Shown: positions 2 to 52,548, counted from the stretch's first letter. The stretch: DNA of 64,000 bases from Candidatus Omnitrophota bacterium (GCA_016213925.1 JACQZH010000041.1:73352-137351); one strand, 5' to 3'. The notes: generated by a model not told the origin, from the sequence alone. Numbers and translations: made by a program.

Positions 2-817
2 GAAGGGCTATGGCAAGTTAATGAAACACAGGATGTGTTATCAATAACCATTGATTGGAAAAAAATACCTCTGCGCCAGATCTGGCAAATTAGAAGGATA
101 GAAAACGGATTTAACTGGCTTGTTTATTCGGACGTTAAAGCGCCGCTGAAAATAGAAAAGATAATCGGCGGGATCATGCTTGCTCCGGAATATGAGGAGT
201 GGTTTAATACCGTAGAACAAGGCAGATTCCCGCAATTTAATGAATCGTGGGAGAGTATTTTTTTGCAGGATACTAAAAGTAAAATTATAGGGGTAAAAGC
301 CAATGGGATACTGCCGGCGCTTATTGTAGAGAATTTGCAGCATGGAGAGATATTACTGCAAAATGCTCCGCAGAGCTGCTTAAGCAGGGCTTTACGCGTT
401 GAACTTAAAACACATAATGAGTTATTTGCAGCTAATCGATATAAATCTTTTAACTTGAATTTATACCTGATTTTCGGAGCAAAGAAATGCGAAAATTTTG
501 TTAAGCAGAAAAGCAATCAGCTGCTTAAGTCAAAAGAGCTTGGCGAAGGCAGTTTGCGGCTTAAATTATCCGATTCTTCCGTGCATCTTTTTTGGAATGA
601 TCTGCAGCTAAGCGTAAATCAGGGGCTGCATTCAGCATTGTTGGTCAATAACGAATGGTTTGACTCAAGTAAATGCGATTGGAAAATTGAAAGAATTAAT
701 GATCAATGCATTTATATTGATATTGACTGGAGGCCTCTGCCCGTGAAGCAATCATGGCAGTTAAATATTATCGATGAAAATTCTTTCTCCTGGAAAGTAA
801 AAACGTATTTTAAATAG
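2..817 (+). CDS. Trp-rich repeat-domain protein, 5'-truncated by the window edge; ends at TAG 815-817 but is in frame with the next ORF (probably the same gene)
   Basis: The frame is open from position 2 (EGLWQVNETQDVLSITIDW...). It contains two or more copies of a roughly 110-aa repeat (motifs G-L-W-Y/F-D-S-S...W; IDW..P..Q.W; KAGI.L...Y..WF....G.FP) that recurs in ORFs 839..3409 and 5669..9433. Confidence 0.5.
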   Translation, partial: EGLWQVNETQDVLSITIDWKKIPLRQIWQIRRIENGFNWLVYSDVKAPLKIEKIIGGIMLAPEYEEWFNTVEQGRFPQFNESWESIFLQDTKSKIIGVKANGILPALIVENLQHGEILLQNAPQSCLSRALRVELKTHNELFAANRYKSFNLNLYLIFGAKKCENFVKQKSNQLLKSKELGEGSLRLKLSDSSVHLFWNDLQLSVNQGLHSALLVNNEWFDSSKCDWKIERINDQCIYIDIDWRPLPVKQSWQLNIIDENSFSWKVKTYFK

Positions 818-838
818 GGGAAAACTGATTTAATTAAA

Positions 839-3409
839 ATGCGCTCGCTTGGACTGATTCTAAATCCGCAATATGATAGATGGTTCGGCGGGTACGAATC
901 CGGATTTTTCCCGGCGGAGTTTAGCGGCTGGCGTGAGATGATAGAAGATAAGGAAAACGGCTCGGCTGTAGGAGTTGTCGGTAATGAAAACCTTCCGGCA
1001 GTATTTTTTAAAAATACCGCTGATAATCAGTCAGTGCTTATTGTTCAGAACTCGGATGAAAAGTCAAAAGCCCGGTTTATACAGTCGGTGCTTACAAATG
1101 GAGGAGATATTTCGGGAAAATCTAATAATGAGGCGGATTTTTCCATAGAAATCAGCATTGTTGAGGACAATAGCCGAGTTGCGCAATATCTGGCAAAAAG
1201 GATAGACGAAGAAATTATCAAGAATGGGATTAGTAAGGGAAGTTTGAAATTAATAGCAGACTCCGGGAAAATGCGCACTTTCTGGCAGGGCAGGGAGATA
1301 ACTGCGGATATCGGTTTGCATACGGCAATATGTTCAAGCGGGTATTGGTATGATTCCGGGAAAATGAAGTGGCAATTGGATAAAGTATCGACGGACAAGC
1401 TGCTGATAAAGGTTGATTTTAATCCATTCCCGGCTATACAGACCTGGGAATTATTTCTTGAAGACGAAAAAACTATTTATTGGAATGTTACGATGGAAAT
1501 TTCAAAGCAGGTAGAGATAAGCGAACGCAAAGCAGGGATTATCCTAAATGGCGAGTATAAAGAGTGGTTTAATTCTTTCGAGCAGGGGGAGTTTCCTGAA
1601 CGCTTTACTTTTTGGCATGACATAATCCGCAATCGGGATGGAGAGACTTTCGGGGTTTATCCCGAAAGCGGGCTGCCTGGCGTTATGTTTAGCATAGATG
1701 ATAATCACTTATCGCTAATCCAGAATACGGATGAAAATATTAAAGGGCGTGTTTTTCAAGGGCAGGTAGTGGAAATTGAGCAGACAAAGAAATATTTACC
1801 GCAAAAGTCGCTGGATTATTTTAAAGGGAAAATAAGGCTTGTTGCTGATAAAAAGGAGATAATAGAGCATAAAAAAATTGCGCAGCCGCTTTCTTATAGG
1901 ACAGAGTCAATCTATTTGTATGGAGATTCGAAGGTCTTGCATAACCGTATTGCCAGGTGCGATGAATTCGATGCTAAAATTAAAAAAATCAAAGATTTTA
2001 TTGATCAGGGCATGCCTGTGTCTGTAGTTGTAGGCATTAGCCGTTATAACTTTTTTAAAATTCATGAGATTCTGCAGTTTTTGGCAAATCATCTGGGTAA
2101 AAATGCTGATTTTCGTTCATTTAAGTTATCGGTTTTTCCGCTTAATAAATTACGCAGGAATTTCATTGAGTATCTGGAAGAGCTGAAAAAAATTGCCAAA
2201 AATATCCTTGGCGTGGAATTTGCTTTAGTTGATGAGGAGTTGTTTAATATTATTATTTCGATTGGTTCTCAAGCAGACCAGGGTAATGAACGCCAGCTGT
2301 TAAGGCTTTTGGGAATAATCTCTGAACATGCTTTTATCGGGCCTCAAATCGTCGTTATTGATCCTTACCATAGATGTAATGCCAATTGTATACACTGCTG
2401 GGTGCATACGCCCGGGGTGCATCATTCTAAAGAATATTATGATACAAAGCTTGATTTGAAAAAATTTAAAAGCATCGCGGATGATTTAGCAGAACTAATG
2501 ACTGATCTGATTATTTTCCAGGGCGACGGAGAACCATTGATGAATGATGAATTTTTTGACATGGTTCGTTATGCCAGAGGAAAAGGGATTAAAGCATCTT
2601 TCTTCACAAACGGTATTTTGCTTAATAAAGATATCGCTAAAGAAGTTATTGAGATGGGAGTTGATGAAATCTTTTGCAGTTTGCCGGCAGGTACTGCTGA
2701 TACGTTTGCTAAAATAAATACAAAACAAAAACCTGAAATATTCTTGAAAGTGCTTGATAATCTAAAATATCTTTGCCAATTGAAAAAGAAAATGCCGGTG
2801 AATAAGCCGCGGCTGATTATGACACATGTCATACACAACATGAACGCGCATGAGCTGATTGAGATGGCAAAGAATGATATTGCTATAGGTGCTGATATAA
2901 TGAGGTTTTACCTTATCAGGCTTGATGAGAATATTGAATTTTTAAGATTAAACGCGGAAAACGTTAAAGATGTGAAGCGTTCTTTGCCGCAAATAAAAGA
3001 GATGGCCAAGGGCAAAAGCATTCAACTGCTGGATACAACGGAATTTCAGCTTAGTAATTTTGAGGAAAATACCGGCGCGTGGTCAAAGGATGTCTTCCTG
3101 AATAATGGCTGCACCTTGGGCTGGAATTTTTCTTTAATTCCCGCTTCCGGAGAGGTGAGTTTCTGCTGTCATTTACGTACAGTTGGTTATCTTGAAAAAA
3201 TGTCATTTAAGCAGATTTGGGATTCTCAAGAGTACAGGCAGTTCCGTTATCAGGCAAAATTTTTGAAGAAAAATGCCAAGACTAAATTCTTAAATGGGAC
3301 AACGATGTTTGACGATTACTGCCAGCATTGCGATACGCACCAGGTTATCCGTGATGTCTGGGATCAGTTTAAATTATACAAACTGGAAAAATTTTTCAAT
3401 GAAACATAA
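839..3409 (+). CDS. repeat-domain / radical SAM-SPASM fusion protein (continuation of the preceding ORF, same frame)
   Basis: N-terminus carries about 3 copies of the Trp-rich repeat (GYWYDSGKMKWQL...FPAIQTWELF...KAGIILNGEYKEWF). Radical SAM cluster motif CNANCIHC (CxxxCxxC) and GDGEP glycine-rich motif. C-terminal Cys-rich SPASM/twitch-like region (GCTLGW...SFCCHL...CQHCD). Confidence 0.7.
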   Translation: MRSLGLILNPQYDRWFGGYESGFFPAEFSGWREMIEDKENGSAVGVVGNENLPAVFFKNTADNQSVLIVQNSDEKSKARFIQSVLTNGGDISGKSNNEADFSIEISIVEDNSRVAQYLAKRIDEEIIKNGISKGSLKLIADSGKMRTFWQGREITADIGLHTAICSSGYWYDSGKMKWQLDKVSTDKLLIKVDFNPFPAIQTWELFLEDEKTIYWNVTMEISKQVEISERKAGIILNGEYKEWFNSFEQGEFPERFTFWHDIIRNRDGETFGVYPESGLPGVMFSIDDNHLSLIQNTDENIKGRVFQGQVVEIEQTKKYLPQKSLDYFKGKIRLVADKKEIIEHKKIAQPLSYRTESIYLYGDSKVLHNRIARCDEFDAKIKKIKDFIDQGMPVSVVVGISRYNFFKIHEILQFLANHLGKNADFRSFKLSVFPLNKLRRNFIEYLEELKKIAKNILGVEFALVDEELFNIIISIGSQADQGNERQLLRLLGIISEHAFIGPQIVVIDPYHRCNANCIHCWVHTPGVHHSKEYYDTKLDLKKFKSIADDLAELMTDLIIFQGDGEPLMNDEFFDMVRYARGKGIKASFFTNGILLNKDIAKEVIEMGVDEIFCSLPAGTADTFAKINTKQKPEIFLKVLDNLKYLCQLKKKMPVNKPRLIMTHVIHNMNAHELIEMAKNDIAIGADIMRFYLIRLDENIEFLRLNAENVKDVKRSLPQIKEMAKGKSIQLLDTTEFQLSNFEENTGAWSKDVFLNNGCTLGWNFSLIPASGEVSFCCHLRTVGYLEKMSFKQIWDSQEYRQFRYQAKFLKKNAKTKFLNGTTMFDDYCQHCDTHQVIRDVWDQFKLYKLEKFFNET

Positions 3410-4376
3410 GAACATTACTTTTTTATTCCAAGGAAGAAGGTTTTCTTTAAGCTTGGGCGGAAAACTTTGTTTGCTTGTGATAAGTATTTGTTTTGCGTTA
3501 ATGATTGCTGAGCTTGCAGTACGGGTATTTGTTAAGGTTCCATTGAAGAAAGAGTATATGAGGTTTGCTAGTTTGAATTACGCTTTTATCCCTGAAGCAA
3601 TGCGGGATAAAGAACTGCTTTGGCTGCCGCGCAAGTATATTAGACAGACAAAATATCAAAAAGATAATAATAGTAGGATAATTTGCATAGGGGATTCTAA
3701 TACTGAAGGCCATAGCAGCCTAAGGATAGAGCAAACTTATCCTTATGCATTGGAGAAAATTTTTAAACAAGAAGGGCATAACAAAACGGTTGAAATTATA
3801 AATGCCGGTTCTTCAGGATATAGTTCTTTTCAGGGGCTGGCGTATTTACGCAAAGAAATTTATAAATATGAGCCTGATTTAGTGATTAGCTGGTTTGGAG
3901 TGCAGGATAGTTCCTGCGCCTGGTTTTATGAAGATAAAGCGCAGGATGCCTTAGAATATCCGGATGATAATAATAGTTTAATGAATTCCAGCAGGTTCTA
4001 TTTATTTATAAAAAATTTTTTCTTTTTAAGTGAAACCTTAAGGAAAAAAATTCCGCGTGTTTTGCCGCAAGATTACATGGCTAATTGCCGCGAAATGCTG
4101 AAGATTTCCAAAGAAAAAGGATTTAAAATGGCATTCATTGTGCCGTTTCACTTAGATTTAAAAAAAAATAAGGTTTTTTATTATGAAGAATATAAAGAAT
4201 TATTGTTGTCACTTGAAAAAGAAACAGATTGTTTGATTATAGATGTTGTCCCCTATTTGTTTGGAAAGAATATAAAAGAGTTATTTTTGGATAGTTGCCA
4301 TCCTAGCGGTAAAGGCAATGATTTTATTGCCGGTATTGTATTTAACGATTTGAAACATAAACAGTTGTTTAACTGA
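3399..4376 (+). CDS. membrane-anchored SGNH/GDSL family hydrolase
   Basis: N-terminal TM helix. Block I ICIGDSNTEG (GDS), block III NAGSSGYSS, block V DSCHPSGKGN (DxxH). Start trimmed to ATG 3399, in frame and overlapping the upstream stop by 11 nt. Confidence 0.65.
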   Translation: MKHKNITFLFQGRRFSLSLGGKLCLLVISICFALMIAELAVRVFVKVPLKKEYMRFASLNYAFIPEAMRDKELLWLPRKYIRQTKYQKDNNSRIICIGDSNTEGHSSLRIEQTYPYALEKIFKQEGHNKTVEIINAGSSGYSSFQGLAYLRKEIYKYEPDLVISWFGVQDSSCAWFYEDKAQDALEYPDDNNSLMNSSRFYLFIKNFFFLSETLRKKIPRVLPQDYMANCREMLKISKEKGFKMAFIVPFHLDLKKNKVFYYEEYKELLLSLEKETDCLIIDVVPYLFGKNIKELFLDSCHPSGKGNDFIAGIVFNDLKHKQLFN

Positions 4377-4406
4377 AAATAAGCGTTGAAAAATTAAAAA
4401 TTTCCG

Positions 4407-5396
4407 ATGAGATTGAGATTTGCTTTTGGCAGGCATAAATATAGAGTCAAAAAAATAACACTGGTTTTTTTGTTTGGCACAGCTTTATTAGCAGCGTTAT
4501 TTTTAAGCGAGATCTTGGTCAGGTGTTTGTTTTCTTTTCCCGAAAGGGGATTTTATTTTAAATTCCGCCATATTAAAAATTTTTATATACCGCAAAGATT
4601 ACTGGATGGGGAATTATTTTGGAAGCCAAAACCTGAATTCCTAGGCTTAAAGTACGCGGAAAAAAAAGGCGATGGCGTTTTTCGGATTATTTGTATCGGA
4701 GATTCGGTAACGCAAAGTTATGATATTTCAGGCAGGCCTCAACCGCTAAAACAGACTTATCCCTATCAGTTGCAGTCTTTGCTTGAACGAATTATCGGTA
4801 AAGGCAGGGTTGAGGTTTTAAATGCCGGGATTGGAGGGTACAGTTCTCTTCAGGGACTTAGGTATTTACAGCGCAGTTTATGGAAATATAATCCGGATTT
4901 AGTGATAAGCTGGTTTGGTGTAAATGACCATAGTTTGGCTTTATTCTATCCGGATAAGGAGCAGCGGCTGTTTGTGAGTGCTGATATTAGGAAAAAAAAA
5001 TTACTTGAAAACAGTGCGTTATTTCTTTTTTTGAGGAATGAATTTTTTATAAAAAAAAAGCAGCGCGTGTCACCTGCTGAATATTTTGCTAATTGCGAGC
5101 AAATGGTGTTATTGGGAAAGGAAAAAAAATTTAAAATAATTTTTATCGCGCCATTTGAATATGAAAAAAAAATAAAGCGGGCAAATTATTATGACGAGTA
5201 TAAGCATGTATTGGAACTTTTGGCGGTAAAATATAATATAAGGGCCTTCGATATTTTACCGGCAGTTTGCATGTCTACGGATGCGGGCAATGTTTTTATA
5301 GATAATTGCCATTTTAATCCGGATGGCAATGCTATTGTTGCCAAGGCGATTTTTAATTTTTTGAAAGATGAGGAGTTTATACAAAGGTTAAAATAG
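4407..5396 (+). CDS. membrane-anchored SGNH/GDSL family hydrolase (tandem paralog of 3399..4376)
   Basis: ICIGDSVTQS, NAGIGGYSS, DNCHFNPDGN; N-terminal TM helix. Contains three A9 homopolymer tracts. Confidence 0.65.
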   Translation: MRLRFAFGRHKYRVKKITLVFLFGTALLAALFLSEILVRCLFSFPERGFYFKFRHIKNFYIPQRLLDGELFWKPKPEFLGLKYAEKKGDGVFRIICIGDSVTQSYDISGRPQPLKQTYPYQLQSLLERIIGKGRVEVLNAGIGGYSSLQGLRYLQRSLWKYNPDLVISWFGVNDHSLALFYPDKEQRLFVSADIRKKKLLENSALFLFLRNEFFIKKKQRVSPAEYFANCEQMVLLGKEKKFKIIFIAPFEYEKKIKRANYYDEYKHVLELLAVKYNIRAFDILPAVCMSTDAGNVFIDNCHFNPDGNAIVAKAIFNFLKDEEFIQRLK

Positions 5397-5684
5397 ATGA
5401 AAATTTTACTTGTTAATTTACCTTGGAAAAATGCTGATAGATGGGGAGTGCGTGCCGGATCGCGCTGGCCGCATATAAAGGACGCGACCGAAGAAAATTA
5501 TCTGGCTTTTCCGTTTTATCTTGCGTATGCCGCGGCGCTATTAAGAAAAAATGGTTTTGATGCAGTGATTATTGACGCGATAGCGCAACGGCTTTCCTAT
5601 GGTGATTTTTTAAAAAAAACTGAAGAACTAAAGCCTGATTTGCTGGTTGCGGAGACGTCTACAGTACCTTGCTTGAGCTTGTAA
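5397..5684 (+). CDS. N-terminal half of a B12-binding domain; fragment of the disrupted fusion gene that continues in another frame at 5669
   Basis: MKILLVNLPW...LAYAAALLRKNGFDAVIIDA...KPDLLVAETST matches the start of B12-binding radical SAM proteins. It stops at TAA, and the downstream ORF continues the same family alignment in frame +2. Confidence 0.4.
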   Translation: MKILLVNLPWKNADRWGVRAGSRWPHIKDATEENYLAFPFYLAYAAALLRKNGFDAVIIDAIAQRLSYGDFLKKTEELKPDLLVAETSTVPCLSL

Positions 5685-8600
5685 AAGCGCTTGAAAATAA
5701 TAACCCGCTGGGAACAGTGCAAGGGCTTATTTACCGTAATAAATCAGATGTGGTAAAAAACTCGCCGCGTACTTTAATTGCCGATTTGGATCAATTGCCC
5801 TGGCCGCTTCGCGAAGGATTGCCGGTTAAGCGTTACAATGATGCTCCGGGGGATATTCCTATCCCTTGCGCTTCAATGTGGGCAAGCCGTGGATGCCCGT
5901 TTGGCTGTTCGTTCTGTCTTTGGCCGCAGGTAATGTACGGGGGTAATTCTTACCGCGTGCGCAGCGTAAAAAACGTAGTTGATGAAATGGAGTATCTTAT
6001 AAAAGAGTTGGGATTTAAATCCGTATATTTTGATGATGATACCTGGAATATCGGTTCTGAAAGGATTATTGCTTTTTGTGATGAACTGGAGCAAAGAAAA
6101 TTGAATGTGCCGTGGGCAATTATGGCAAGAGCAGAATTGATGAATGAGTATTTACTCGAAAGGATGCGCAAGGCAGGATTGTATGCGGTAAAATACGGGA
6201 TTGAATCATCTTCGCAAAAGATCGTTAATGATACCGGAAAGAGGCTTAATCTTGAAAAAGCGGAGGAGATGATAAGGTATACGAAGTATCTGGGGATAAA
6301 GACTCATTTAACGTTTACTTTTGGATTGCCCGGAGAAACGCAGCAAACAATTAATGAAACAATAGAATATGCTTGCAGGCTTAATCCTACTTCAGTGCAG
6401 TTTTCTCTGGCAACGCCTTTTCCCGGGACAAGATTTTACGATGAAATGGAGAAAAAAGGATATATAGTCTCAAAAGATTTAGAAAAGCTTGATGGTAATC
6501 ACAGCAGCGTGATCAGAACGCAAAGCCTTAGCGCCCGCGAACTGCAGCAAGCGAAGAAAAAAGCTTATATAACTTGGAATAGGCATTGCCGGTTTAAACG
6601 GCAAAGGCTAAAATTTCCTCAAAAAACTATAAAGGAAAAATTTGACGCTTCATTGCTGGAATACGGGTTATTTTATACAACAATGAAAATTTTGCGTTAT
6701 ATTTTGAGGCGTTTGCTGATTATCCCGTGGAAAATCCGCAGCTTTTTTAATGCAAATCTCTGGATTATAGAAGAAATTATAACTGCCGGGAATATTTCGA
6801 TTAAGTTCGGCGAAGGGCAAGTGCGCGTATACTATAATAATATAGAAATTTCAAAAGGGATCGGGATTACGGCTTCATTTTATTACGGAGAACGTTGGTT
6901 TGATTCTTCTCGGGCTAACTGGAAGCTTGAGAAAGATTCAGAGAAAAGCATAAGAGTTAAATTGACCTGGGATGATATCCCCATACGGCAATCATGGACA
7001 ATTTTGATTGGTGAAGAAGGGAAAATAAGCTGGAATAGCAAGCTTCAAGTACAAACTGCAGTACAGCTGCTTGAGTATAAGGCTGGAATCATGCTTCAGG
7101 AGCAATATACTAGATGGAAAGATGAACTTGGTGTTGGAAATTTCCCGAAAATAACTCAATGGGAAGAAATTGAATTATATAACGCTAATTCCCGCAGGCT
7201 TTTTGTTTTTAAAGAGGCTGCGGAAAGTAATAGCCAGATGCCGGAAGTCGAATTAGCGCTGAAAACAGCAAACAGGCCAAACATATATCCGCAGATACAA
7301 AATACTGATATAAAAACGAATGCTCGGATTATTCAGATGCGCAGTTTGCGAATTGAGCAGTTTGTCCCGGGAGAATATGCATATTTTGATCTGGAAATAT
7401 TTTTGCATAAAAAAAACTTGATAGCGCAGAATGTATCTGCGCTTAAGAAAAGAACTCCTTTAGGAATAATTAAGGCGCAGATTGCTCAAAATGGGGCTTC
7501 TACGGTGCTGCGTAAAATTATTAAAAACCTGCATCCGGTAAAACTTTCGGATTATTATACGGATATTGTCGGAGTTATGGACGGTTCCTATGCGTATAAG
7601 GGGCCTTATTGCGTGCAAATCGATCTGACCAACGATTGTAATAACGATTGTGTCGGCTGCTGGTGTAATTCACCGCTTTTGAAAGAGCGAAAAATCAGCA
7701 AGGAGATAAAGCAGCAGGCATTACCTTTGGATGTAGTGAAAAAAACAATTGATGATTTGGCGCTAATGGGAACTAAAGAGATATATTTTGCCGGAGGCGG
7801 AGAGCCGTTTATGCATGCGCATATTATGGAGATACTTGAATATGTCAAAGCTAAAGGATTAAAGTGTTATATAAATACAAACTTTACGTTGGTAACCGAA
7901 AATATGGTTAAACGGCTTGTGGAGATTGGAGTTGATCATTTGGTTGTAAGTGTATGGGCAGGAACTGCACAGACATATAAGCTTACGCATCCCAATAAGT
8001 CAGAAGAGATGTTTTATCAGATAAAAGGGATGTTAAAGCTGCTTAATTCTTTAAAGGACAATGTGCCGCAGGTTAATGTGTATAACATTATTTTTAACCG
8101 GAACTTTAAAGAATTGCCGCAGATGGTTGATTTCGCGCTTGAAGCCGGAGCCGATTCACTTGAATTTACGGTTATTGACACGATCCCTGAAGCGACGGAT
8201 ACACTGATTTTGGACGAAGGACAACGTTTACAGGTTTGCGGTGATTGTGAGAATATTCAAAAACGTTTGGAAGGTGAGCTTAAGGGAAAGATAAAAATTC
8301 TTCAGTTTGAGCAATTCTTGCGCCGCGTGAATAATAACGCCGCGCAAAAAGCTGAATATGATGATAATATTCTCGCGGAAATACCGTGTTATATCGGTTG
8401 GATTTTTGCCCGGATACTTGCTGACGGAAATGTTAACTTTTGCCTGAAAGCGCATCGTATTCCGGTGGGGAATATTTACGCGCATTCTTTTTCGCAAATC
8501 TGGAATAACCGCAAGCAACAGGAATTCCGTATAAGAGCACTGTGCCAGGAAAAAACCGATCCATTTTTTTCGTTTATTGGGAATGATCCGAATGTTCAGG

Positions 8601-9433
8601 TAGGTTGTTTTAAGGGCTGTGATGACCTTGCGAGGAATATCCGTATGCATGAAAAAATTCAATCGTTAACACGACCGGAATTTATTTTTTTGCGCATTGT
8701 GCTTATTTTAAAGAAAATGCTGCGTTTATATCGGACAAAAGCGCTTTCCAGCACGTTTAAAAAACGGTTACAAACAACTAAAAGGAAGCCTATACTTTCT
8801 TCCGGTAAACTTAGTATTGATTGCTGTGAAGACGGGATTAAACTTTACTGGGATGGTAAAGAGTTGACAGAAAGCGTGGGATTAAATACTTCAGTGTGCG
8901 TATATGGTTTATGGTATGACTCTTCAAGAGCTGAATGGGAAATAATGGGAAATTCTCATGCAAGATGCGTAATCCGTAATACTTGGAAAAATATTCCGGT
9001 TTCACAGCTATGGACGATTACAACGGATAATGATAATCTTATAAAATGGGATGTAAAGATGATTGTAGATACAAGAATTGATATAGAAGAAAGTAAAGCA
9101 AGCATAATCCTCAATTCCCGATATAAAAAGTGGATTGCCGGAGATGATCTTGGGTTCTTTCCCCGGGAAATGTCTTGGAATGAAGTTCAGATCCCCGGGA
9201 AAGCGGTTAAGAACATAGGAGTTCAATCAGTAAAAGATAAAGACTGGAAATTTCCTTCTGTGCAGATTATCTTTTTGGAAAAACAGGAAGGTGTTAAACC
9301 TCAATTGCAAAATGCCGGTAAAAAGATAAATGCGCGGTTATTGTCCGTACGCAAAGCTTCTGAAGATGGAGAAACAATATATCTGCCGGGAGAACATGAT
9401 ATCTTTTCACTGCAAATTAAAGTGATGGAATAA
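5669..9433 (+). CDS. giant multidomain fusion: (B12-)radical SAM + Trp-rich repeat + second radical SAM-SPASM + Trp-rich repeat
   Basis: First radical SAM: RGCPFGCSFC. Repeat: YYGERWFDSSRANWKLE...IPIRQSWTIL...KAGIMLQEQYTRW. Second radical SAM: CNNDCVGC, GGGEPF, then Cys-rich SPASM-like tail (NFCLKAH...CQEK...GCFKGCDD). C-terminal repeat: GLWYDSSRAEWEI...IPVSQLWTI...KASIILNSRYKKWI. The ORF-track start is TTG; the true start is uncertain. Confidence 0.7.
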   Translation: MLELVKALENNNPLGTVQGLIYRNKSDVVKNSPRTLIADLDQLPWPLREGLPVKRYNDAPGDIPIPCASMWASRGCPFGCSFCLWPQVMYGGNSYRVRSVKNVVDEMEYLIKELGFKSVYFDDDTWNIGSERIIAFCDELEQRKLNVPWAIMARAELMNEYLLERMRKAGLYAVKYGIESSSQKIVNDTGKRLNLEKAEEMIRYTKYLGIKTHLTFTFGLPGETQQTINETIEYACRLNPTSVQFSLATPFPGTRFYDEMEKKGYIVSKDLEKLDGNHSSVIRTQSLSARELQQAKKKAYITWNRHCRFKRQRLKFPQKTIKEKFDASLLEYGLFYTTMKILRYILRRLLIIPWKIRSFFNANLWIIEEIITAGNISIKFGEGQVRVYYNNIEISKGIGITASFYYGERWFDSSRANWKLEKDSEKSIRVKLTWDDIPIRQSWTILIGEEGKISWNSKLQVQTAVQLLEYKAGIMLQEQYTRWKDELGVGNFPKITQWEEIELYNANSRRLFVFKEAAESNSQMPEVELALKTANRPNIYPQIQNTDIKTNARIIQMRSLRIEQFVPGEYAYFDLEIFLHKKNLIAQNVSALKKRTPLGIIKAQIAQNGASTVLRKIIKNLHPVKLSDYYTDIVGVMDGSYAYKGPYCVQIDLTNDCNNDCVGCWCNSPLLKERKISKEIKQQALPLDVVKKTIDDLALMGTKEIYFAGGGEPFMHAHIMEILEYVKAKGLKCYINTNFTLVTENMVKRLVEIGVDHLVVSVWAGTAQTYKLTHPNKSEEMFYQIKGMLKLLNSLKDNVPQVNVYNIIFNRNFKELPQMVDFALEAGADSLEFTVIDTIPEATDTLILDEGQRLQVCGDCENIQKRLEGELKGKIKILQFEQFLRRVNNNAAQKAEYDDNILAEIPCYIGWIFARILADGNVNFCLKAHRIPVGNIYAHSFSQIWNNRKQQEFRIRALCQEKTDPFFSFIGNDPNVQVGCFKGCDDLARNIRMHEKIQSLTRPEFIFLRIVLILKKMLRLYRTKALSSTFKKRLQTTKRKPILSSGKLSIDCCEDGIKLYWDGKELTESVGLNTSVCVYGLWYDSSRAEWEIMGNSHARCVIRNTWKNIPVSQLWTITTDNDNLIKWDVKMIVDTRIDIEESKASIILNSRYKKWIAGDDLGFFPREMSWNEVQIPGKAVKNIGVQSVKDKDWKFPSVQIIFLEKQEGVKPQLQNAGKKINARLLSVRKASEDGETIYLPGEHDIFSLQIKVME

Positions 9434-9434
9434 A

Positions 9435-11084
9435 ATGCAAAAGATTATATTAGTTAACACTCCTCCATGGGGAACGGCAATGCCTCCATTAGGAGTGGCT
9501 TATTTAGCTACTTATTTAAAGTCAAAGGGAATAGATATTGATACTTTTGATTTGAACCTTGAATTATTTTTAAATTCCGGGGATAAGGAAAAAGTTTTTT
9601 GGGGGCTTGACGCAATAAATAAAATTCCGGTACAAACGATTGCAAATAATATATTTTCAAGTTTTATGCCGTATTTAGAAAAATTTTTTTCTTTTACGGC
9701 AAAATATGATCTTATCGGTTTTTCGGCAAATAATCTTATTAGCACGACTTTTGCCGGAATTCTGGCTGAACATATAAGAAAACGCTATCCTGAAAAAATA
9801 ATTATTCTTGGCGGGCCGGGATGTTTTCATAGTTGGGATAGGAGCGTAGTGCCACAGGGAAGCGTTGATTTTTTTGTTATAGGCGAAGGAGAAGAGACCT
9901 TGCATCAGCTTATTTGCGTTTTACGTTCCGGTATTGATAAAAATGGGGGTTCAGAACCTATTCCCGGAGTAATTGATAATAGAACAGGAAAAAAGCAGCG
10001 GTTTATTCCGCGAAGAGAGATTAGAGACATTAATAGTATCCCCCATCCGACATTTGAGGAATTTTCATTTACAAAGTACGAAAGTTTTCCTGGATATCAT
10101 CCTTTGCCTATGCTTATGAGCCGTGGCTGTATAAATGAGTGCAGTTTTTGTATTGACTGTTATATGAGTTCGCCGTTTCGTATGCGTGCTGCCGGCAATA
10201 TCGTTGAAGAAATAAAATATCATAAAAACCGTTATGGAATAACTCATGTGGAGTTTAATGACCTGCTTTGTAACGGCAACATATATCAATTGGAACAGTT
10301 TTGTGATTTGATGATCAGGGAATCTTTGGATATCCGCTGGATAAGTTATGCGGCAGTGCGCAAAAACATGAGTGAAGATTTACTTAAGAAGATGAGACAG
10401 GCTGGTTGTACTTCTTTATGCTACGGGCTTGAAAGCGGATCGGATAATGTGTTGAAAAAGATGAATAAACATTATGGCGCATCTGATGCGGCAGAACTGA
10501 TTAAAAAAACAGCAGCGGCGGGAATAGAAGTTAGAATTAATATTATAGTTGGTTTTCCCGGGGAAACTGAACGGGATTTTGCCCAGACACTTACTTTTAT
10601 CAGGGAAAATAAAGATTATATCAGGCAGGTGACCAATGTTTCTTCTTTTGTTTTAATGCCGTCAGCTCAGTTGGCAATTACTCCGCATCGTTATGGGATT
10701 AGTTATTTAGATTCGGATGATTTAGGCAAGTGGACAGACGATAACCGGCTAACGCAGGATGAACGCAATAACCGCGTAAAAAAAACATGCCGGTTACTAG
10801 CCGAATTGCAAATAGATAACCTTATTATTAATTTACAGGAACCTGTCTGCAAGGATGGTGATCGTGGCGTTTTGCACGCGGCAGGTGAAAAAAATAATAT
10901 TAGGGAAGAAACAAAAGAGAATATTTGCGCTAAAGCAGTGTTTAAGGAAAAAAAATACCGGCGGGAAAATAAACTTTTTAAATTTTTAGTATTAGCAGGC
11001 TTATTGCTTTTTAGTGTTATTGCTGACCTGTATTTATTCATCATAAAAAAAATTAGAGGGTCAATAATTTTTCCTGGAAGCTGA
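9435..11084 (+). CDS. B12-binding radical SAM protein with C-terminal TM helix
   Basis: N-terminal B12-binding-like domain (IILGGPGCF...FFVIGEGEETL); radical SAM SRGCINECSFC; C-terminal hydrophobic helix. Confidence 0.7.
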   Translation: MQKIILVNTPPWGTAMPPLGVAYLATYLKSKGIDIDTFDLNLELFLNSGDKEKVFWGLDAINKIPVQTIANNIFSSFMPYLEKFFSFTAKYDLIGFSANNLISTTFAGILAEHIRKRYPEKIIILGGPGCFHSWDRSVVPQGSVDFFVIGEGEETLHQLICVLRSGIDKNGGSEPIPGVIDNRTGKKQRFIPRREIRDINSIPHPTFEEFSFTKYESFPGYHPLPMLMSRGCINECSFCIDCYMSSPFRMRAAGNIVEEIKYHKNRYGITHVEFNDLLCNGNIYQLEQFCDLMIRESLDIRWISYAAVRKNMSEDLLKKMRQAGCTSLCYGLESGSDNVLKKMNKHYGASDAAELIKKTAAAGIEVRINIIVGFPGETERDFAQTLTFIRENKDYIRQVTNVSSFVLMPSAQLAITPHRYGISYLDSDDLGKWTDDNRLTQDERNNRVKKTCRLLAELQIDNLIINLQEPVCKDGDRGVLHAAGEKNNIREETKENICAKAVFKEKKYRRENKLFKFLVLAGLLLFSVIADLYLFIIKKIRGSIIFPGS

Positions 11085-11140
11085 AACAGCGTTTAGAGAT
11101 TAGCGGGCAGCGATTAGATAAAAACAAAAAGGATGTAAAA

Positions 11141-12316
11141 GTGAAGATATTGATGGTTCATCCGCATGATTTATTTTCTAAAAAAGAGCCGTGGACAACA
11201 CGTATAAGAAATATCGCGCTTGAGTTTAAGAAAAAAGGGCATGATGTTAAAGTTGTTTATTTTCCTTTGGAGTATAAGGGGTTCGAGAAAAGGTTCTTTT
11301 TGAATGATATTGAGTTTATCCCTTTGAGCCGCCGAGTTGGAATAATGCCGTTAGCGCAAAATATCCGTTTTCTTTTTAAAGAATCAAAATGGGCAGATGT
11401 AATCCATTTTCAAAAATGTTTTTACTATGCGGCGTTGCCGGCGCTTATTGGCGCGTTTTGCAGTGAAAAACCAGTGCATTACGACTGGGATGACTGGGAA
11501 ATAAAAATATTTCATTATAGCGCGAAGCAGCCATGGCTTATCGGGATTTTTTTAGCAGCATTGGAACGCTGGATTCCTTGCCTTTGTGATACGGTTTCTG
11601 TCTCCAGCATTCGTTTGAGGGAAGAATGTCTGCGTTATGGAATATCAGCCGAATCTATTGTCATGGCTCCGGTTGGTGCGGACCTTGATTTATTTAATCC
11701 GGCGGTTTCCGGAGTGCGTATCAGGGAAAGATTTAATATTAAAGGCCAGTTAGTAAGCTATCTTGGGCAATTGCATGGGGGCCAGTATGTGGAACAATTT
11801 ATTAGGGCTGCAAAAATAATACTTAATAAAATGCCCCAAACAATATTTATGATTATTGGCGGGGGATACCAGCTTGATGCTTTAAAGAAAATGGCGGATA
11901 GCTTGCAATTGAGTGAAAAATTAATATTTACTGATGCTGTTCCCCATAGGGAAACTGCTCAATATATCGCTGCTGCTGACGTAACAGTTGCTTGCTTTGA
12001 AGATAATGATATAACCCGTTGCAAGAGCCCGCTTAAGATTGCTGAATATCTTGCCAGCGGTAAACCGATTGTAGCTAGTGATGTCGGAGAGGTTAAACGG
12101 ATGCTTGCCGGCGCAGGGATTGTAACAGCTCCGGCAGACCCTGAAGATTTGGCTGCTGGAATTATAAAAATTCTGGAAGATGAGCCGTTAAGAAAAAAGA
12201 TTGCTTTGCATGCGCGAAAAAGAGCAGAGGACATTTATAATTGGAAGAATACTGCGGATAATCTGCTTTTCGCATATCAAAAGGTGTTTCAGTATAAAAA
12301 AGGTAAAGAGGAATAA
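11141..12316 (+). CDS. glycosyltransferase family 4 (GT-B)
   Basis: C-terminal EX7E-type motif KSPLKIAEYLASGKPIVASDVGE; GT4-like length and layout. GTG start per ORF track. Confidence 0.65.
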   Translation: MKILMVHPHDLFSKKEPWTTRIRNIALEFKKKGHDVKVVYFPLEYKGFEKRFFLNDIEFIPLSRRVGIMPLAQNIRFLFKESKWADVIHFQKCFYYAALPALIGAFCSEKPVHYDWDDWEIKIFHYSAKQPWLIGIFLAALERWIPCLCDTVSVSSIRLREECLRYGISAESIVMAPVGADLDLFNPAVSGVRIRERFNIKGQLVSYLGQLHGGQYVEQFIRAAKIILNKMPQTIFMIIGGGYQLDALKKMADSLQLSEKLIFTDAVPHRETAQYIAAADVTVACFEDNDITRCKSPLKIAEYLASGKPIVASDVGEVKRMLAGAGIVTAPADPEDLAAGIIKILEDEPLRKKIALHARKRAEDIYNWKNTADNLLFAYQKVFQYKKGKEE

Positions 12317-45063: not shown

Positions 45064-46023
45064 GTGTGGAATTTCTATAAAAACCAGCATGGAAATTTCA
45101 AGCTTCGGATGATGGTTGTAGTGTATATAATTTTTCTTTTATTTTTAGAGTTAGGGTTGCGTCGCAGTGTTCCTTATAAAAATAGCCTTCCGGATATTAT
45201 TCAAGCTAGTGATGTTTCTGGGATGGAGTATGAATTGAAGCCTAACACAACCAGCATATTTGAAGGATGTGGTTTCCGTCTCAAACCGACACAAGTAGTG
45301 ATTAATTCCTATGGTATCCGTAATGATGAATTTAACCTGCGTAAACAAGCTAATAAATTTCGTATTTTAGCTGTTGGAGATTCGGTAGTATTTGGCTGGG
45401 GAGTTGAGAAAAAAGAAAGTTTTGTATATCTCCTGGAACAAATGTTAAATAATCGTTCTTCCTTGCATCGTTTTGAAGTGCTTAATTTTGGGGTTCCGGG
45501 TTATAATTTAACACAAGAAGTTGAATTAGTCGGTGCTAAGGGTATCATCTTGGAACCGGATTTAATAATTTTTTATATTACTGATAATGACTTGCGGGAA
45601 GCGATTGATTATAATAATATAAATCCAATACATCGATATTTACCAACTATAATAAAATCAACAGCGATTTACAATTTTTTATATACAAGATTAATTAGGA
45701 TAGTAGAGTTGTTTGCAAGAGATAAAAGCCATTCCGAAGGGGTGTTTAGTCAGGCAAAAGAGAAATTGCTTAGTTTGCCACAAAGTATCCGTGATAGGAT
45801 TATTTTTTTTGCTGAAAATGAAGGAATATTATCAGGCATGATAAGAGAAAACGGTTTTTTTATAACTGTGGCAGAAATAAACTTGTATAAAAATGATTTA
45901 GTTTTTAAGAATGATTGGCATCCGAATCAGGATGGCCATAGAGCTATTACATGTGAATTGTATGATACTGTAATGCATTTTTTTGAAGAAAATAAATTAG
46001 AAAATGCATATAATTTTTATTGA
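45064..46023 (+). CDS. membrane-anchored SGNH/GDSL family hydrolase
   Basis: ILAVGDSVVFGWG, NFGVPGYN, DWHPNQDGH; N-terminal TM. GTG start per ORF track; start uncertain. Confidence 0.6.
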   Translation: MWNFYKNQHGNFKLRMMVVVYIIFLLFLELGLRRSVPYKNSLPDIIQASDVSGMEYELKPNTTSIFEGCGFRLKPTQVVINSYGIRNDEFNLRKQANKFRILAVGDSVVFGWGVEKKESFVYLLEQMLNNRSSLHRFEVLNFGVPGYNLTQEVELVGAKGIILEPDLIIFYITDNDLREAIDYNNINPIHRYLPTIIKSTAIYNFLYTRLIRIVELFARDKSHSEGVFSQAKEKLLSLPQSIRDRIIFFAENEGILSGMIRENGFFITVAEINLYKNDLVFKNDWHPNQDGHRAITCELYDTVMHFFEENKLENAYNFY

Positions 46024-50079: not shown

Positions 50080-51123
50080 ATGAAGAAAAATATACTTATT
50101 ATTGGAAGTGCCGGTTTTTTAGGCGAAGCATTATTGAGGCATCTCTCACAAAAGGATTATAAACTAACAGGTTTTGATAGAACTAATCCGTTCCCGTTGA
50201 CGTTAAATGCTGAATATATAAAGGGGGATATCCTTGATTATCAATCAGTGCATAAAGCGATAAAAGCAAAAGATGTGGTGATTAATTGTTCTGGAGTTAT
50301 GCCGAATGCTTCAAAAAAGGAAATGTTTTCTTTACACTCTAATGGCATGGAAAATATTTTAAAAAGTGCGCTAGAAAATACGGTTGATAGAATAATTCAT
50401 ATTTCATCTCCTGCGGTGTATGGTTCTAATGATACGATCCCTTGGGGTGAAGATGCTCCATTGAGAGGGGCTAATGTGCATGCGCAGGCAAAAATTATAG
50501 CCGAACAGGTTTGTCAGAAATACAGGATTAAAGGATTATCAGTAACAATTTTAAGGCCAATGCCTCTTACGGGGCATGGAAGATTAGGAGTTTTTTACTT
50601 GTTTTATCAATTAATTGAAAAAGGAATTACTATCCCATTGCTGGGGGATGGGAAGAATATAATTCAATTGCTTGATATCGGAGATTTGTGCAATGTAATC
50701 ACTTTACTTATTCAGCAAGATAAATCACTAATTAATGATGTGTTTAATGTTGGAGCAGAACGATTTTCTACTTTACGTGAAGATATCCAGAACTTGATCA
50801 ATACTGTTAACAGTAAATCACGATTATGTTTGTTCCCAGCTTTTCCCATAAAGATCATACTTAATATACTTACGAAAATTGGGATATCGGACATTTATTA
50901 CCCAATGATTGCTATTTTAGATAAGTCAATTATACTTTCAAACGAAAAAATTAAAAAACTTGGTTGGAAAGCAGTCAAGAGTAATACAGAGTCATTAATA
51001 ACAGGCTACTATTGGTATTTAAAAAATAAAGAGAATATTATTGAAACAAAAACTAATCGCGGAAAATCTTCAAATAAAGCGTCTCGTTTATTAAATATCC
51101 TTTTTAAAAAGGCTTCGAAGTAA
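50080..51123 (+). CDS. NAD-dependent epimerase/dehydratase (extended SDR)
   Basis: ILIIGSAGFLGEAL glycine-rich NAD motif; length typical of the family. Confidence 0.55.
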   Translation: MKKNILIIGSAGFLGEALLRHLSQKDYKLTGFDRTNPFPLTLNAEYIKGDILDYQSVHKAIKAKDVVINCSGVMPNASKKEMFSLHSNGMENILKSALENTVDRIIHISSPAVYGSNDTIPWGEDAPLRGANVHAQAKIIAEQVCQKYRIKGLSVTILRPMPLTGHGRLGVFYLFYQLIEKGITIPLLGDGKNIIQLLDIGDLCNVITLLIQQDKSLINDVFNVGAERFSTLREDIQNLINTVNSKSRLCLFPAFPIKIILNILTKIGISDIYYPMIAILDKSIILSNEKIKKLGWKAVKSNTESLITGYYWYLKNKENIIETKTNRGKSSNKASRLLNILFKKASK

Positions 51124-52548
51124 TAGCAGAAGCCAAAGTCTTACGGTATTAAATTGGCGTAATATAATGAGAATAGTAAAGTTGCAAAAAATCATGCGTC
51201 GTAAATATGAAGCAGATGCATAAAAAGCAAGGTATGCTTTGCTTGCCCATGCATTTAAATCCTTTCTGCTTAATATTACGTCAGGATTTTCCCATAATCG
51301 TGTTTCTATCGTGTTGTTTAGATAAGATTCAAGCCAGGGGTCTTTATTGAATTTTTTTAATATTTTATTATAGATATCTGTGTAAGGCAATGGTACAGTA
51401 ACTATAAACTGCGCAAAATGTAATGGCAATTTTTTTGCAAACTGAATGGTGTCAGAAATGCTATTTATTGTATCACCGCTATTCCCAATCATAAAAAAGC
51501 CTAAAGTTATAAAATTACGTTTTACGGTTGCAGCTATAATGTGTTCTATATTGTTTAGAGACGTTGGACGTTTCAGTGTCTTTAGTATATCGCTACTTCC
51601 TGATTCAATCCCATAATGAATGCTAATGCATCCAGCTTTTTTCAGCTCATCTAATAAATCAGGGTCCATGTAATCAGTACGGGTACGGATTGCCCATTTT
51701 ATATCTATTTTATGTTTTCGCAGTTGGCTGCAAAATGATATTGTCCTTTCGCGATCTATGGTAAAAGTCGAATCCAAGAAAGTGATTTCTCTGATTCCGA
51801 ATCGATAACGGCATTCTTCGATTTCTTCTATAGTTTTTGATAGTGTTCTTTTTTGGTACGGGATCTGTCTGTCGGTGCAATAGGTACATTTGAAAGGACA
51901 TCCGATACTGGTTATCATTGTTGTAAATTTACTATGGATGGAAAGAGCTGAACCATATAGGCCGTTATTAATAAGTTCCCGAGCTGGAAAAGGGAGTTCA
52001 TCAAGCACATAGGCATCTTCTGGAGGATTTTGAATGATTTTATTATCCTCTTGATAAACGATGCCATTAATGTGCTTAAAACTTTTTTTGCGTGCTATTG
52101 TTTCGATAATAGATGGCAGGGAGGAGAACCCTTTACCAGAGAGAACGATATCTATTTGCTTGTTTTTAGCGACTATTTCAGGATAAAGCTGGGGGAAATG
52201 TCCTCGAGCAATAATTACAGCGGATGATATTTTTCTGATCAACTTTAAACAATCGATTTCATAACGGGGATTGAAAATGTTGATGGATGAACAGACAATA
52301 TCCGGCTGGTTATTTTTTATATATAAAATAATGTCTTGTAGTGAAAAATAGTCTAATTCACAATCAAAAATTTTTATGTTATGCCCATTTTTTTTAAGTA
52401 ATGCTGCTGAATAAAGCAGCCCCAAGGGGGGATAACGGACAAGCCATTTGCAATACAGCGTTGAAGAAAGACACCCTCCGGGATTAATGATACTCGATGC
52501 TGAGGAAGTCCCGGCTTTAAGAGGGAAACGAATAAATAGGATATTCAT
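51091..52548 (-). CDS. B12-binding radical SAM protein (only minus-strand gene in the window)
   Basis: N-terminal B12-binding-like domain and SIGCPFKCTYC. Convergent 33-nt overlap with 50080..51123. Confidence 0.7.
   Translation of the reverse strand: MNILFIRFPLKAGTSSASSIINPGGCLSSTLYCKWLVRYPPLGLLYSAALLKKNGHNIKIFDCELDYFSLQDIILYIKNNQPDIVCSSINIFNPRYEIDCLKLIRKISSAVIIARGHFPQLYPEIVAKNKQIDIVLSGKGFSSLPSIIETIARKKSFKHINGIVYQEDNKIIQNPPEDAYVLDELPFPARELINNGLYGSALSIHSKFTTMITSIGCPFKCTYCTDRQIPYQKRTLSKTIEEIEECRYRFGIREITFLDSTFTIDRERTISFCSQLRKHKIDIKWAIRTRTDYMDPDLLDELKKAGCISIHYGIESGSSDILKTLKRPTSLNNIEHIIAATVKRNFITLGFFMIGNSGDTINSISDTIQFAKKLPLHFAQFIVTVPLPYTDIYNKILKKFNKDPWLESYLNNTIETRLWENPDVILSRKDLNAWASKAYLAFYASASYLRRMIFCNFTILIILRQFNTVRLWLLLLLRSLFKKDI

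Follow-up and report, generated by a model that had tools for sequence, protein, structure and literature searches.

A 148-nucleotide deletion relative to orthologues in a giant double radical-SAM gene of an Omnitrophota bacterium

How does a giant gene come to be read as two overlapping fragments, and does what is left still make an enzyme? The question is raised by a 64,000-nucleotide stretch of DNA, here called the window, from a Candidatus Omnitrophota bacterium (GCA_016213925.1, JACQZH010000041.1:73352-137351). A first-pass annotation had described two of its open reading frames (ORFs), 5397..5684 and 5669..9433, as the remains of a fusion gene for radical S-adenosylmethionine (radical-SAM) enzymes whose N-terminal B12-binding domain had been broken by a deletion plus a frameshift. 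Both ORFs exist as described, in different frames, and the architecture proposed for the longer one (a radical-SAM core, a repeat, a radical-SAM core with a SPASM domain, and a second repeat) was confirmed by Pfam and profile hidden Markov models (HMMs), with Pfam finding two Radical_SAM regions and one SPASM domain in the product of 1254 amino acids (aa). We refer to the repeat as domain X. The features that define the break are as follows.

5397..5666, plus strand: N-terminal remnant, ancestral codons 1-90, covering strand 1 to strand 3 of a Rossmann-like 'B12-binding' domain, frame 0
5397..5684, plus strand: stub ORF, 95 aa, frame 0; in GenBank hypothetical protein HY810_06980
5666..5667, plus strand: deletion junction ACAGTA/CCTTG; 148 nucleotides (nt) absent relative to orthologues, that is 49 codons plus 1 nt; frame 0 changes to frame +2
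5667..5684, plus strand: out-of-frame stub tail PCLSL with stop TAA at 5682-5684; overlaps the beginning of the 1254-codon ORF
5669..9433, plus strand: 1254-codon ORF, frame +2, TTG start, the rest of the gene; in GenBank MBI4846198.1, 'radical SAM protein'

The junction and the missing 49 residues

In a three-frame translation, frame 0 reads ...KPDLLVAETSTV and then PCLSL and a stop, so that with its tail the stub ends in ...LKPDLLVAETSTVPCLSL. Frame +2 reads ...TLLELVKALENNNPLGTVQGLIYRN...LDQLPWP; its last upstream stop is TGA 5636-5638, after which it runs open as FAGCGDVYSTLLELVKALENNNPLGTVQGLIYRN...LDQLPWP. The stretch spanning the junction is ACAGTACCTTG. The junction DNA, ACA GTA/CC TTG, occupies 5661-5671, and A 5666 serves as the third base of a valine codon in frame 0 and as the first base of a threonine codon in frame +2. 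The two ORFs overlap by 16 nt, frame +2 being equivalent to a -1 shift, and the window DNA at the junction holds neither an N run nor low-complexity sequence. GenBank entry MBI4846198.1, from a Candidatus Omnitrophica metagenome-assembled genome (MAG), has the same sequence as the 1254-aa product.

Approximately 20 Omnitrophota orthologues, 54-61% identical, are single proteins of 1391-1403 aa that cover the whole query, nearly all of them labelled Omnitrophota or PVC (Planctomycetes-Verrucomicrobia-Chlamydiae). Because synteny is conserved, and strictly so with the orthologue loci L001/L002 and L003, the window gene and these relatives are true orthologues. Their N termini match frame 0 through AETSTV and frame +2 from TLLELV, and the whole of the 1254-codon ORF matches orthologue residues 140-1394 at 61% identity. 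The spacing from ETSTV to TLLEL is 49 residues in 11 full-length orthologues (50 in one) and zero in the window, and this hole is the only substantial gap of the window sequence in the full-length alignment. A profile HMM of the orthologue N-terminal module agrees: the 95-aa ORF matches its positions 1-91, and the 1254-aa ORF its positions 141-454. The same division emerged when all three frames were aligned to the B12-type radical-SAM paralogues in the window: the stub aligns to approximately their first 70-100 residues, whereupon the long ORF takes up the alignment at residues 118-163.

These comparisons uphold the earlier view that the alignment resumes in frame +2, and narrow the frame change, previously placed within 5655-5672, to 5666/5667. 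The loss of residues had also been recognized correctly, although the number is 49 rather than about 45. Sequence comparison identifies the 95-aa and 1254-aa ORFs as halves of one gene. A separate frameshift is not needed: since 49 codons plus one base make 148 nt (3x49+1), a single deletion of that length accounts for both the missing residues and the change of frame. Two orthologues differ from the others in ways of their own. In P0006 (locus L015, 1443 aa), a cysteine-rich insertion of approximately 49 aa lies in the linker at residues ~160-210, beginning after ...LLELAQTLR about 10 residues past the point at which the window has its deletion; the linker region therefore tolerates a change in length. 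In L013 the orthologue is broken at 8047-8148 by an N run, either a scaffold gap or masking, so the gene is sometimes assembled uncleanly.

The consensus of the missing block in the orthologues is TLxHDLxxLxxxxxxxxIALCGPDxHIxxxxFLxxxxxIDYVLFGEYEA. To place it in a structure we used an AlphaFold2 model of residues 1-455 of an intact orthologue, P0002, built from a 29-sequence alignment (mean predicted local distance difference test score, pLDDT, 94.2; predicted template-modelling score, pTM, 0.92). The modelled N-terminal domain is a five-stranded Rossmann-like fold, followed by a hairpin and the radical-SAM barrel, with these elements:

Strands: 1, residues 2-7; 2, 55-60; 3, 82-86; 4, 108-111; 5, 131-133
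Helices: 1, residues 40-51; 2, 68-78; 3, 92-102; 4, 115-125; 5, 137-149

In the model, the deleted residues 91-139 run from helix 3 through strand 4 and helix 4 to strand 5 and take in the first turn of helix 5. Among them are G112, in a CGP motif that is the counterpart of the paralogues' GGxH, and G135, E136 and E138 of a 'GEYE' motif; all of these residues are invariant or nearly so in the orthologues and the window paralogues. The glycine-rich core has thus been lost, as the first-pass annotation held. In a census of 120 relatives, 112 have the full N-terminal domain and the remaining late starters are partial proteins at contig ends, so that no complete protein among the 120 is without it. 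Because two of the five strand-helix units of this barrel-capping domain are gone and no complete relative does without the domain, we infer from the model that the first radical-SAM module was inactivated.

Conservation outside the junction and the fate of the upstream giant

The gene had also been described as possibly decayed. We tested this with the 341 alignment columns that are invariant across 19 orthologues, and found 338 of these residues retained in the window: 30/30 in the N-terminal stub, 118/118 in the first radical-SAM core, 31/32 in the first copy of domain X, 123/125 in the second core with its SPASM domain and 36/36 in the second copy of domain X (308/311 outside the N-terminal remnant). 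Both CX3CX2C motifs are intact. Decay beyond the one lesion was not found; the reading frame is disrupted relative to intact orthologues, as in a pseudogene, and the signs of relaxed constraint (more stops, indels or lost invariant residues) are absent. Substitutions that create stops make up 5.2% of those possible in the 1254-codon ORF, and a neutral copy would have a 50% chance of a closed frame by 0.34% divergence and a 95% chance by 1.5%, before indels are counted. Because nothing else has decayed and 1254 codons stay open, the sequence fits one of three situations: a very young lesion, an assembly artefact, or a remainder that is still selected.

A second giant gene lies upstream.

2..3409, plus strand: upstream giant paralogue, with three X domains and a radical-SAM core with SPASM; broken by an in-frame TAG (815-817); the gene begins upstream of the window's first base

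Its ORFs 35..817 and 839..3409 share one frame and align, through the TAG, at 64% identity to residues 58-1177 of a 1178-aa orthologue. Orthologues of this gene measure 1178-1183 aa, and GenBank annotates only the 856-aa downstream part in the window. We considered and rejected an alternative code or recoding of the TAG, which ends 5 of 46 window genes (TAA ends 22 and TGA 19). The suggestion that the ~1,400-codon gene is the second inactivated member of its repeat and radical-SAM family in the locus fits this stop, and it fits a second MAG, GCA_022013175.1 (L004), in which the same pair is broken. There, the orthologue at 8001-12197 carries an in-frame TAA, reading PGN-stop-PYFDL where orthologues have PGxYxYFDL, and is otherwise aligned over residues 1-1393; the upstream giant at 1358-4935 is split into 872 and 320 aa by a frameshift, apparently through loss of one G from a G-run. 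L004 was inspected because of its short 708-aa match (P0083), and further loci came from a scan of GTDB species representatives. Close kinship does not link the two MAGs with broken genes, as their ~1,400-aa proteins are 59.7% identical, no closer than other orthologues.

Across the 13 loci that could be assessed for both giants, both are intact in 11, both are broken in two, and no locus is discordant (Fisher's exact test, p ~0.013). Random placement of two lesions in the 64-kb window, one in each giant gene, would have a probability of approximately 1% by length. No other broken gene was seen among the ~46 other long window ORFs, those matched by Pfam being covered end to end; seven window ORFs have no Pfam match at E<=1e-5. 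The window has only five intergenic gaps, of 135-396 nt, and its other syntenic genes are of orthologue-like length. General assembly sloppiness is a less likely cause of the paired lesions. Since two independent lineages have lost both giants and eleven have kept both, the simplest reading of these sequences is that the two genes act in one pathway, the loss of one lifting selection on the other.

Domain architecture, relatives and gene cluster

The domains of the longer ORF are arranged as follows.

5684..6571, plus strand: first radical-SAM core, AprD4/HpnJ-like, of class-B architecture; HpnJ profile positions 134-430, 224.8 bits; AprD4 (6fd2), E 9e-30
5894-5917, plus strand: CPFGCSFC motif (CX3CX2C), residues 76-83 of the 1254-aa ORF
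6755..7405, plus strand: domain X copy 1, ~215 aa, predicted all-beta supersandwich (AlphaFold2)
7625..8545, plus strand: second radical-SAM core with SPASM; Pfam Radical_SAM 124.4 bits and SPASM 39.0 bits, both above cut-off
7637-7660, plus strand: CNNDCVGC motif of the second radical-SAM core
8792..9424, plus strand: domain X copy 2, matched by an HMM built from copy 1 at residues 1042-1252, E 3.7e-45

The first module has the CX3CX2C motif of class B in a partial triosephosphate isomerase (TIM) barrel, as judged from CPFGCSFC, the Pfam Radical_SAM match and superposition of the orthologue model. The N-terminal PF02310 domain of that class is not recognized in the window copy, in which 49 residues are deleted and the stub matches positions 14-56 of the 121-position Pfam B12-binding model at 18.5 bits, against a cut-off of 32.1. 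Most intact orthologues carry a precomputed PF02310 match, and the ancestral gene would therefore have had the domain. The module does not reach either of two equivalog cut-offs: for HpnJ (TIGR03471) it scores 224.8 against 577.6 bits, well short even allowing for the missing N terminus, and for the AprD4 family (NF033070) it scores 105.6 against 500 bits.

AprD4 is an enzyme of apramycin biosynthesis, and paromamine is an aminoglycoside pseudodisaccharide. The PDB entry for AprD4 lists it as a radical SAM 1,2-diol dehydratase in complex with its substrate paromamine. AprD4 (PDB 6FD2) is the best PDB sequence match for the first module, has a sugar as its substrate, and shares with the intact gene an N-terminal Rossmann-like domain followed by a CX3CX2C radical-SAM barrel; it superposes on the orthologue model over 458 columns with template-modelling (TM) scores of 0.80/0.80 at 24% identity. 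In contrast to AprD4, the window gene is fused to three more domains and its N-terminal domain is broken. The next fold matches of the orthologue model are true cobalamin enzymes, namely TsrM, MgmA, OxsB, CysS and TokK. AprD4 itself has a Rossmann-like domain but binds no cobalamin (PMC12931638), and homology to it therefore says nothing either way about the use of B12. For this gene family, B12 dependence is an annotation, a label given by homology, and is unproven. The proposal that translation begins at an internal start, in an enzyme that no longer depends on B12, thus starts from an unproven premise, and no complete relative without the N-terminal domain supports it.

HpnJ is a B12-type radical-SAM enzyme that is not a methylase; its proposed reaction is a ring contraction of the glucosamine in bacteriohopanetetrol glucosamine (PMC9204698). 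It is the top NCBIfam model of the first module and, like AprD4, acts on a sugar. The context differs, being a glycosyltransferase-rich cluster, and no hopanoid-biosynthesis family is among the Pfam matches of the window ORFs. For the second module, the nearest solved sequences are BtrN, BlsE and PqqE, and the features of the SPASM class are present (PF04055, 124.4 bits, cut-off 29.5; PF13186, 39.0 bits, cut-off 21.5, residues 907-959). BlsE and BtrN are listed in the PDB under carbohydrate-type substrates. Unlike these and other SPASM/twitch enzymes, such as anSME-type maturases, the second module is flanked on both sides by X domains within a ~1,400-aa protein, and it reaches no NCBIfam equivalog, the best being W_rSAM_matur at 120 against 380 bits.

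Domain X has no sequence match in Pfam, even at E<=10, and none in the PDB. An AlphaFold2 model from 43 sequences (pLDDT 94.2, pTM 0.90) was matched by Foldseek to 47 PDB entries at E<=1e-3, the best being an accessory domain of the GH36-type galactosaminidase FpGalNase (9ayu; query-normalized TM score 0.72, E 1.5e-7); others were galactose mutarotase, GH94 phosphorylases, GH174 fucanase, heparinase and the P1 domain of YidC. Sequence identity to such galactose-mutarotase-like domains, found in glycoside hydrolases, phosphorylases and lyases, is at most 10%, so that the likeness is one of fold and not of sequence family. On the strength of the model, domain X is best described as an undescribed domain with a predicted galactose-mutarotase-like supersandwich fold. 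Trp, Asp, Ser, Gln, Asn and Tyr predominate among its near-invariant residues, which also include Pro, Phe and Gly. The domain is rare: at E<=1e-3, 1.84 billion representatives yield 646 clusters, with one to nine matched stretches per protein; two copies lie in the window gene and at least three in the upstream giant (window 2-1840). Domain X also occurs in apparently single-domain proteins of ~240-300 aa. Fusions of this fold to a radical-SAM enzyme are not known to have been described, although no literature search was aimed at the architecture, and the domain X and radical-SAM family is not described in the Omnitrophota giant-protein preprint.

The radical-SAM module family is modular, with many architectures of the first core, domain X and the second core. 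Loci L029-L083 match only the first ~450 residues (the first radical-SAM module), at 45-54% identity and apparently as stand-alone proteins, in MAGs labelled Desulfobacterota/Deltaproteobacteria, CSSED10-310, Sumerlaeota, Coatesbacteria, Chloroflexota and others. In the scanned loci the full four-domain match was found only in MAGs labelled Omnitrophota, PVC group or uncultured Planctomycetia. The syntenic order around the gene is:

5' part: ABC protein, four small radical-SAM genes, ~1,180-aa radical-SAM gene with SPASM, two GDSL/SGNH genes, the ~1,400-aa gene
3' part: ~547-aa B12-type radical-SAM gene, GT4 and GT2 (glycosyltransferases), carbamoyltransferase, ~260-aa gene, PMT_2, radical-SAM gene with SPASM, methyltransferase, PMT_2

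The 64-kb cluster encodes GT1/GT4 and GT2 glycosyltransferases (several each of GT2 and GT4), six PMT_2 (GT-C) membrane glycosyltransferases, a YfhO-like protein, a carbamoyltransferase, a polysaccharide deacetylase, an asparagine-synthase (AsnB)-like amidotransferase, an NAD-dependent epimerase/dehydratase and methyltransferases. Approximately 20 radical-SAM genes are present; the count of nine B12-type paralogues besides the broken gene held up, and the radical-SAM paralogues share 25-32% protein identity. Three SGNH/GDSL hydrolase paralogues (3294-4376, 4407-5396 and 45064-46023) may handle O-acyl groups of a glycan; two of them lie between the giants, as in L003, whereas L004 has three there. 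The window also contains a DUF362 gene, and of the ORFs counted as genes (150 aa or longer) 51091-52548 alone is on the minus strand.

On the basis of this gene content, of the sugar-acting relatives AprD4, HpnJ, BlsE and BtrN, and of the fold that domain X shares with carbohydrate-binding domains of glycosidases, the 64-kb locus is probably a glycan-tailoring cluster in which the two giants would jointly modify a surface glycan or glycolipid by radical chemistry. As a working model, each radical-SAM core may be paired with a glycan-holding domain X and tailor a polymeric surface glycan or glycolipid.

Origin of the lesion and what it means

We consider it probable that a real and very recent 148-nt deletion split the ~1,400-codon gene and inactivated its first radical-SAM module, within a coupled loss of the two giants. 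The ancestor would have encoded the Rossmann-like N-terminal domain with the AprD4/HpnJ-like core, domain X, the SPASM radical-SAM core and a second domain X. One out-of-frame deletion at 5666/5667 would have left a 95-codon stub and a 1254-codon remainder; the event would be biologically real and recent, within roughly 1.5% neutral divergence or less, and the nonsense TAG upstream would belong to the same loss. Several points weigh against this account. The intact remainder and its open frame fit an artefact or continued expression equally well, and the population was assembled once, each protein of the locus being a single-member cluster on one contig. The co-occurrence statistic turns on two broken loci, one of which was inspected because its protein was short. 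The size of the deletion is awkward too. We rejected a repeat-mediated origin: the T-L codons of the orthologues (ACC TTR) follow both breakpoints, L003 having ACT GTT ACC TTA there, and slippage across this direct ACCTTG repeat predicts an in-frame loss of 147 nt rather than 148.

An error of assembly or consensus, by which the real genome would hold an intact gene and the gap (perhaps also the TAG) would come from strain mis-joining or a local mistake, would look much like what is seen, with perfectly conserved flanks (30/30 and 308/311 invariant residues) in the one assembly of the population, and the N gap at L013 indicates that these giants can be hard to assemble. We nevertheless regard it as unlikely, because a deletion and a point nonsense mutation struck the two giants and nothing else in 64 kb, two unrelated MAGs carry four different lesions, all in this one pair of genes, the paralogues are too divergent for mis-joining, and the junction is clean. 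A truncated but working enzyme is more doubtful still. Translation from TTG 5669 or GTG 5717, for example by termination and reinitiation, would represent an adaptive loss of the 'B12' domain, and the product would either work without its N-terminal domain or at least supply the second radical-SAM core with SPASM and both copies of domain X. In its favour, the frame is open and fully conserved over 1254 codons, TTG 5669 precedes the stub's stop (5682-5684) by 13 nt in a geometry that fits translational coupling, a GGAG stands 14 nt upstream of that TTG, the family is modular, and AprD4, the closest solved relative, is without cobalamin. But the GGAG is unremarkable and carries little information, Shine-Dalgarno sequences being weak or absent at many of 37 gene starts; none of the 120 relatives is complete without the domain; an out-of-frame deletion inside a domain is unlike the normal fixation of domain loss; the stub is still conserved, as after a recent accident; and the upstream partner carries a plain nonsense codon. 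Programmed recoding, in which a -1 frameshift joins the ORFs and the upstream TAG is read through or reassigned, is hardly credible. The overlap of 16 nt and the -1 equivalence of frame +2 would suit it, yet no X XXY YYZ slippery heptamer occurs in the open overlap 5639-5684, a joined product would still be without the 49 conserved residues, TAG is in use as a terminator in the window, and the orthologues examined have one uninterrupted ORF, except in L004 (nonsense) and L013 (N run).

The deletion that we favour is comparable to young unitary pseudogenes, or to loss-of-function alleles, of bacterial surface-polysaccharide loci: one lesion disables a conserved gene that is otherwise intact, a neighbour linked to it in function is hit as well, and another lineage has independent lesions. 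It is unlike phase variation in that the lesions fall outside the simple repeats typical of it, except for the 1-nt loss from a G-run in L004. A further possibility, which we think quite unlikely, is that the lesions are loss-of-function alleles that arise repeatedly and do not last, in a two-gene module for the radical tailoring of a surface glycan, with the remainder perhaps translated by reinitiation. If so, some lineages would silence both giants at once, for instance when phages or hosts exert selection on the cell surface, and the reinitiated 1254-codon remainder might supply the second radical-SAM module with SPASM. The underlying gene family would then represent a new class of polymer-directed double radical-SAM glycan modifiers, each coupled to a rare, undescribed galactose-mutarotase-like domain.

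The lesion itself is ordinary, of a kind found in many genomes, and GenBank lists its halves as a 'hypothetical protein' and a 'radical SAM protein'. What is worth remembering is the gene family, the undescribed domain X and the coupled loss of the giants. Caution is advised where B12 dependence is inferred from 'B12-binding' annotations such as this one. Joint breakage in two lineages and joint integrity in eleven provide genetic evidence that the two giants serve one pathway, and the coupling, within one gene family, of two different radical-SAM chemistries to a rare supersandwich domain, in a 64-kb cluster with approximately 20 radical-SAM genes and many glycosyltransferases, points to unusually heavy radical tailoring of a surface glycan in the Omnitrophota, which are uncultured and poorly understood.

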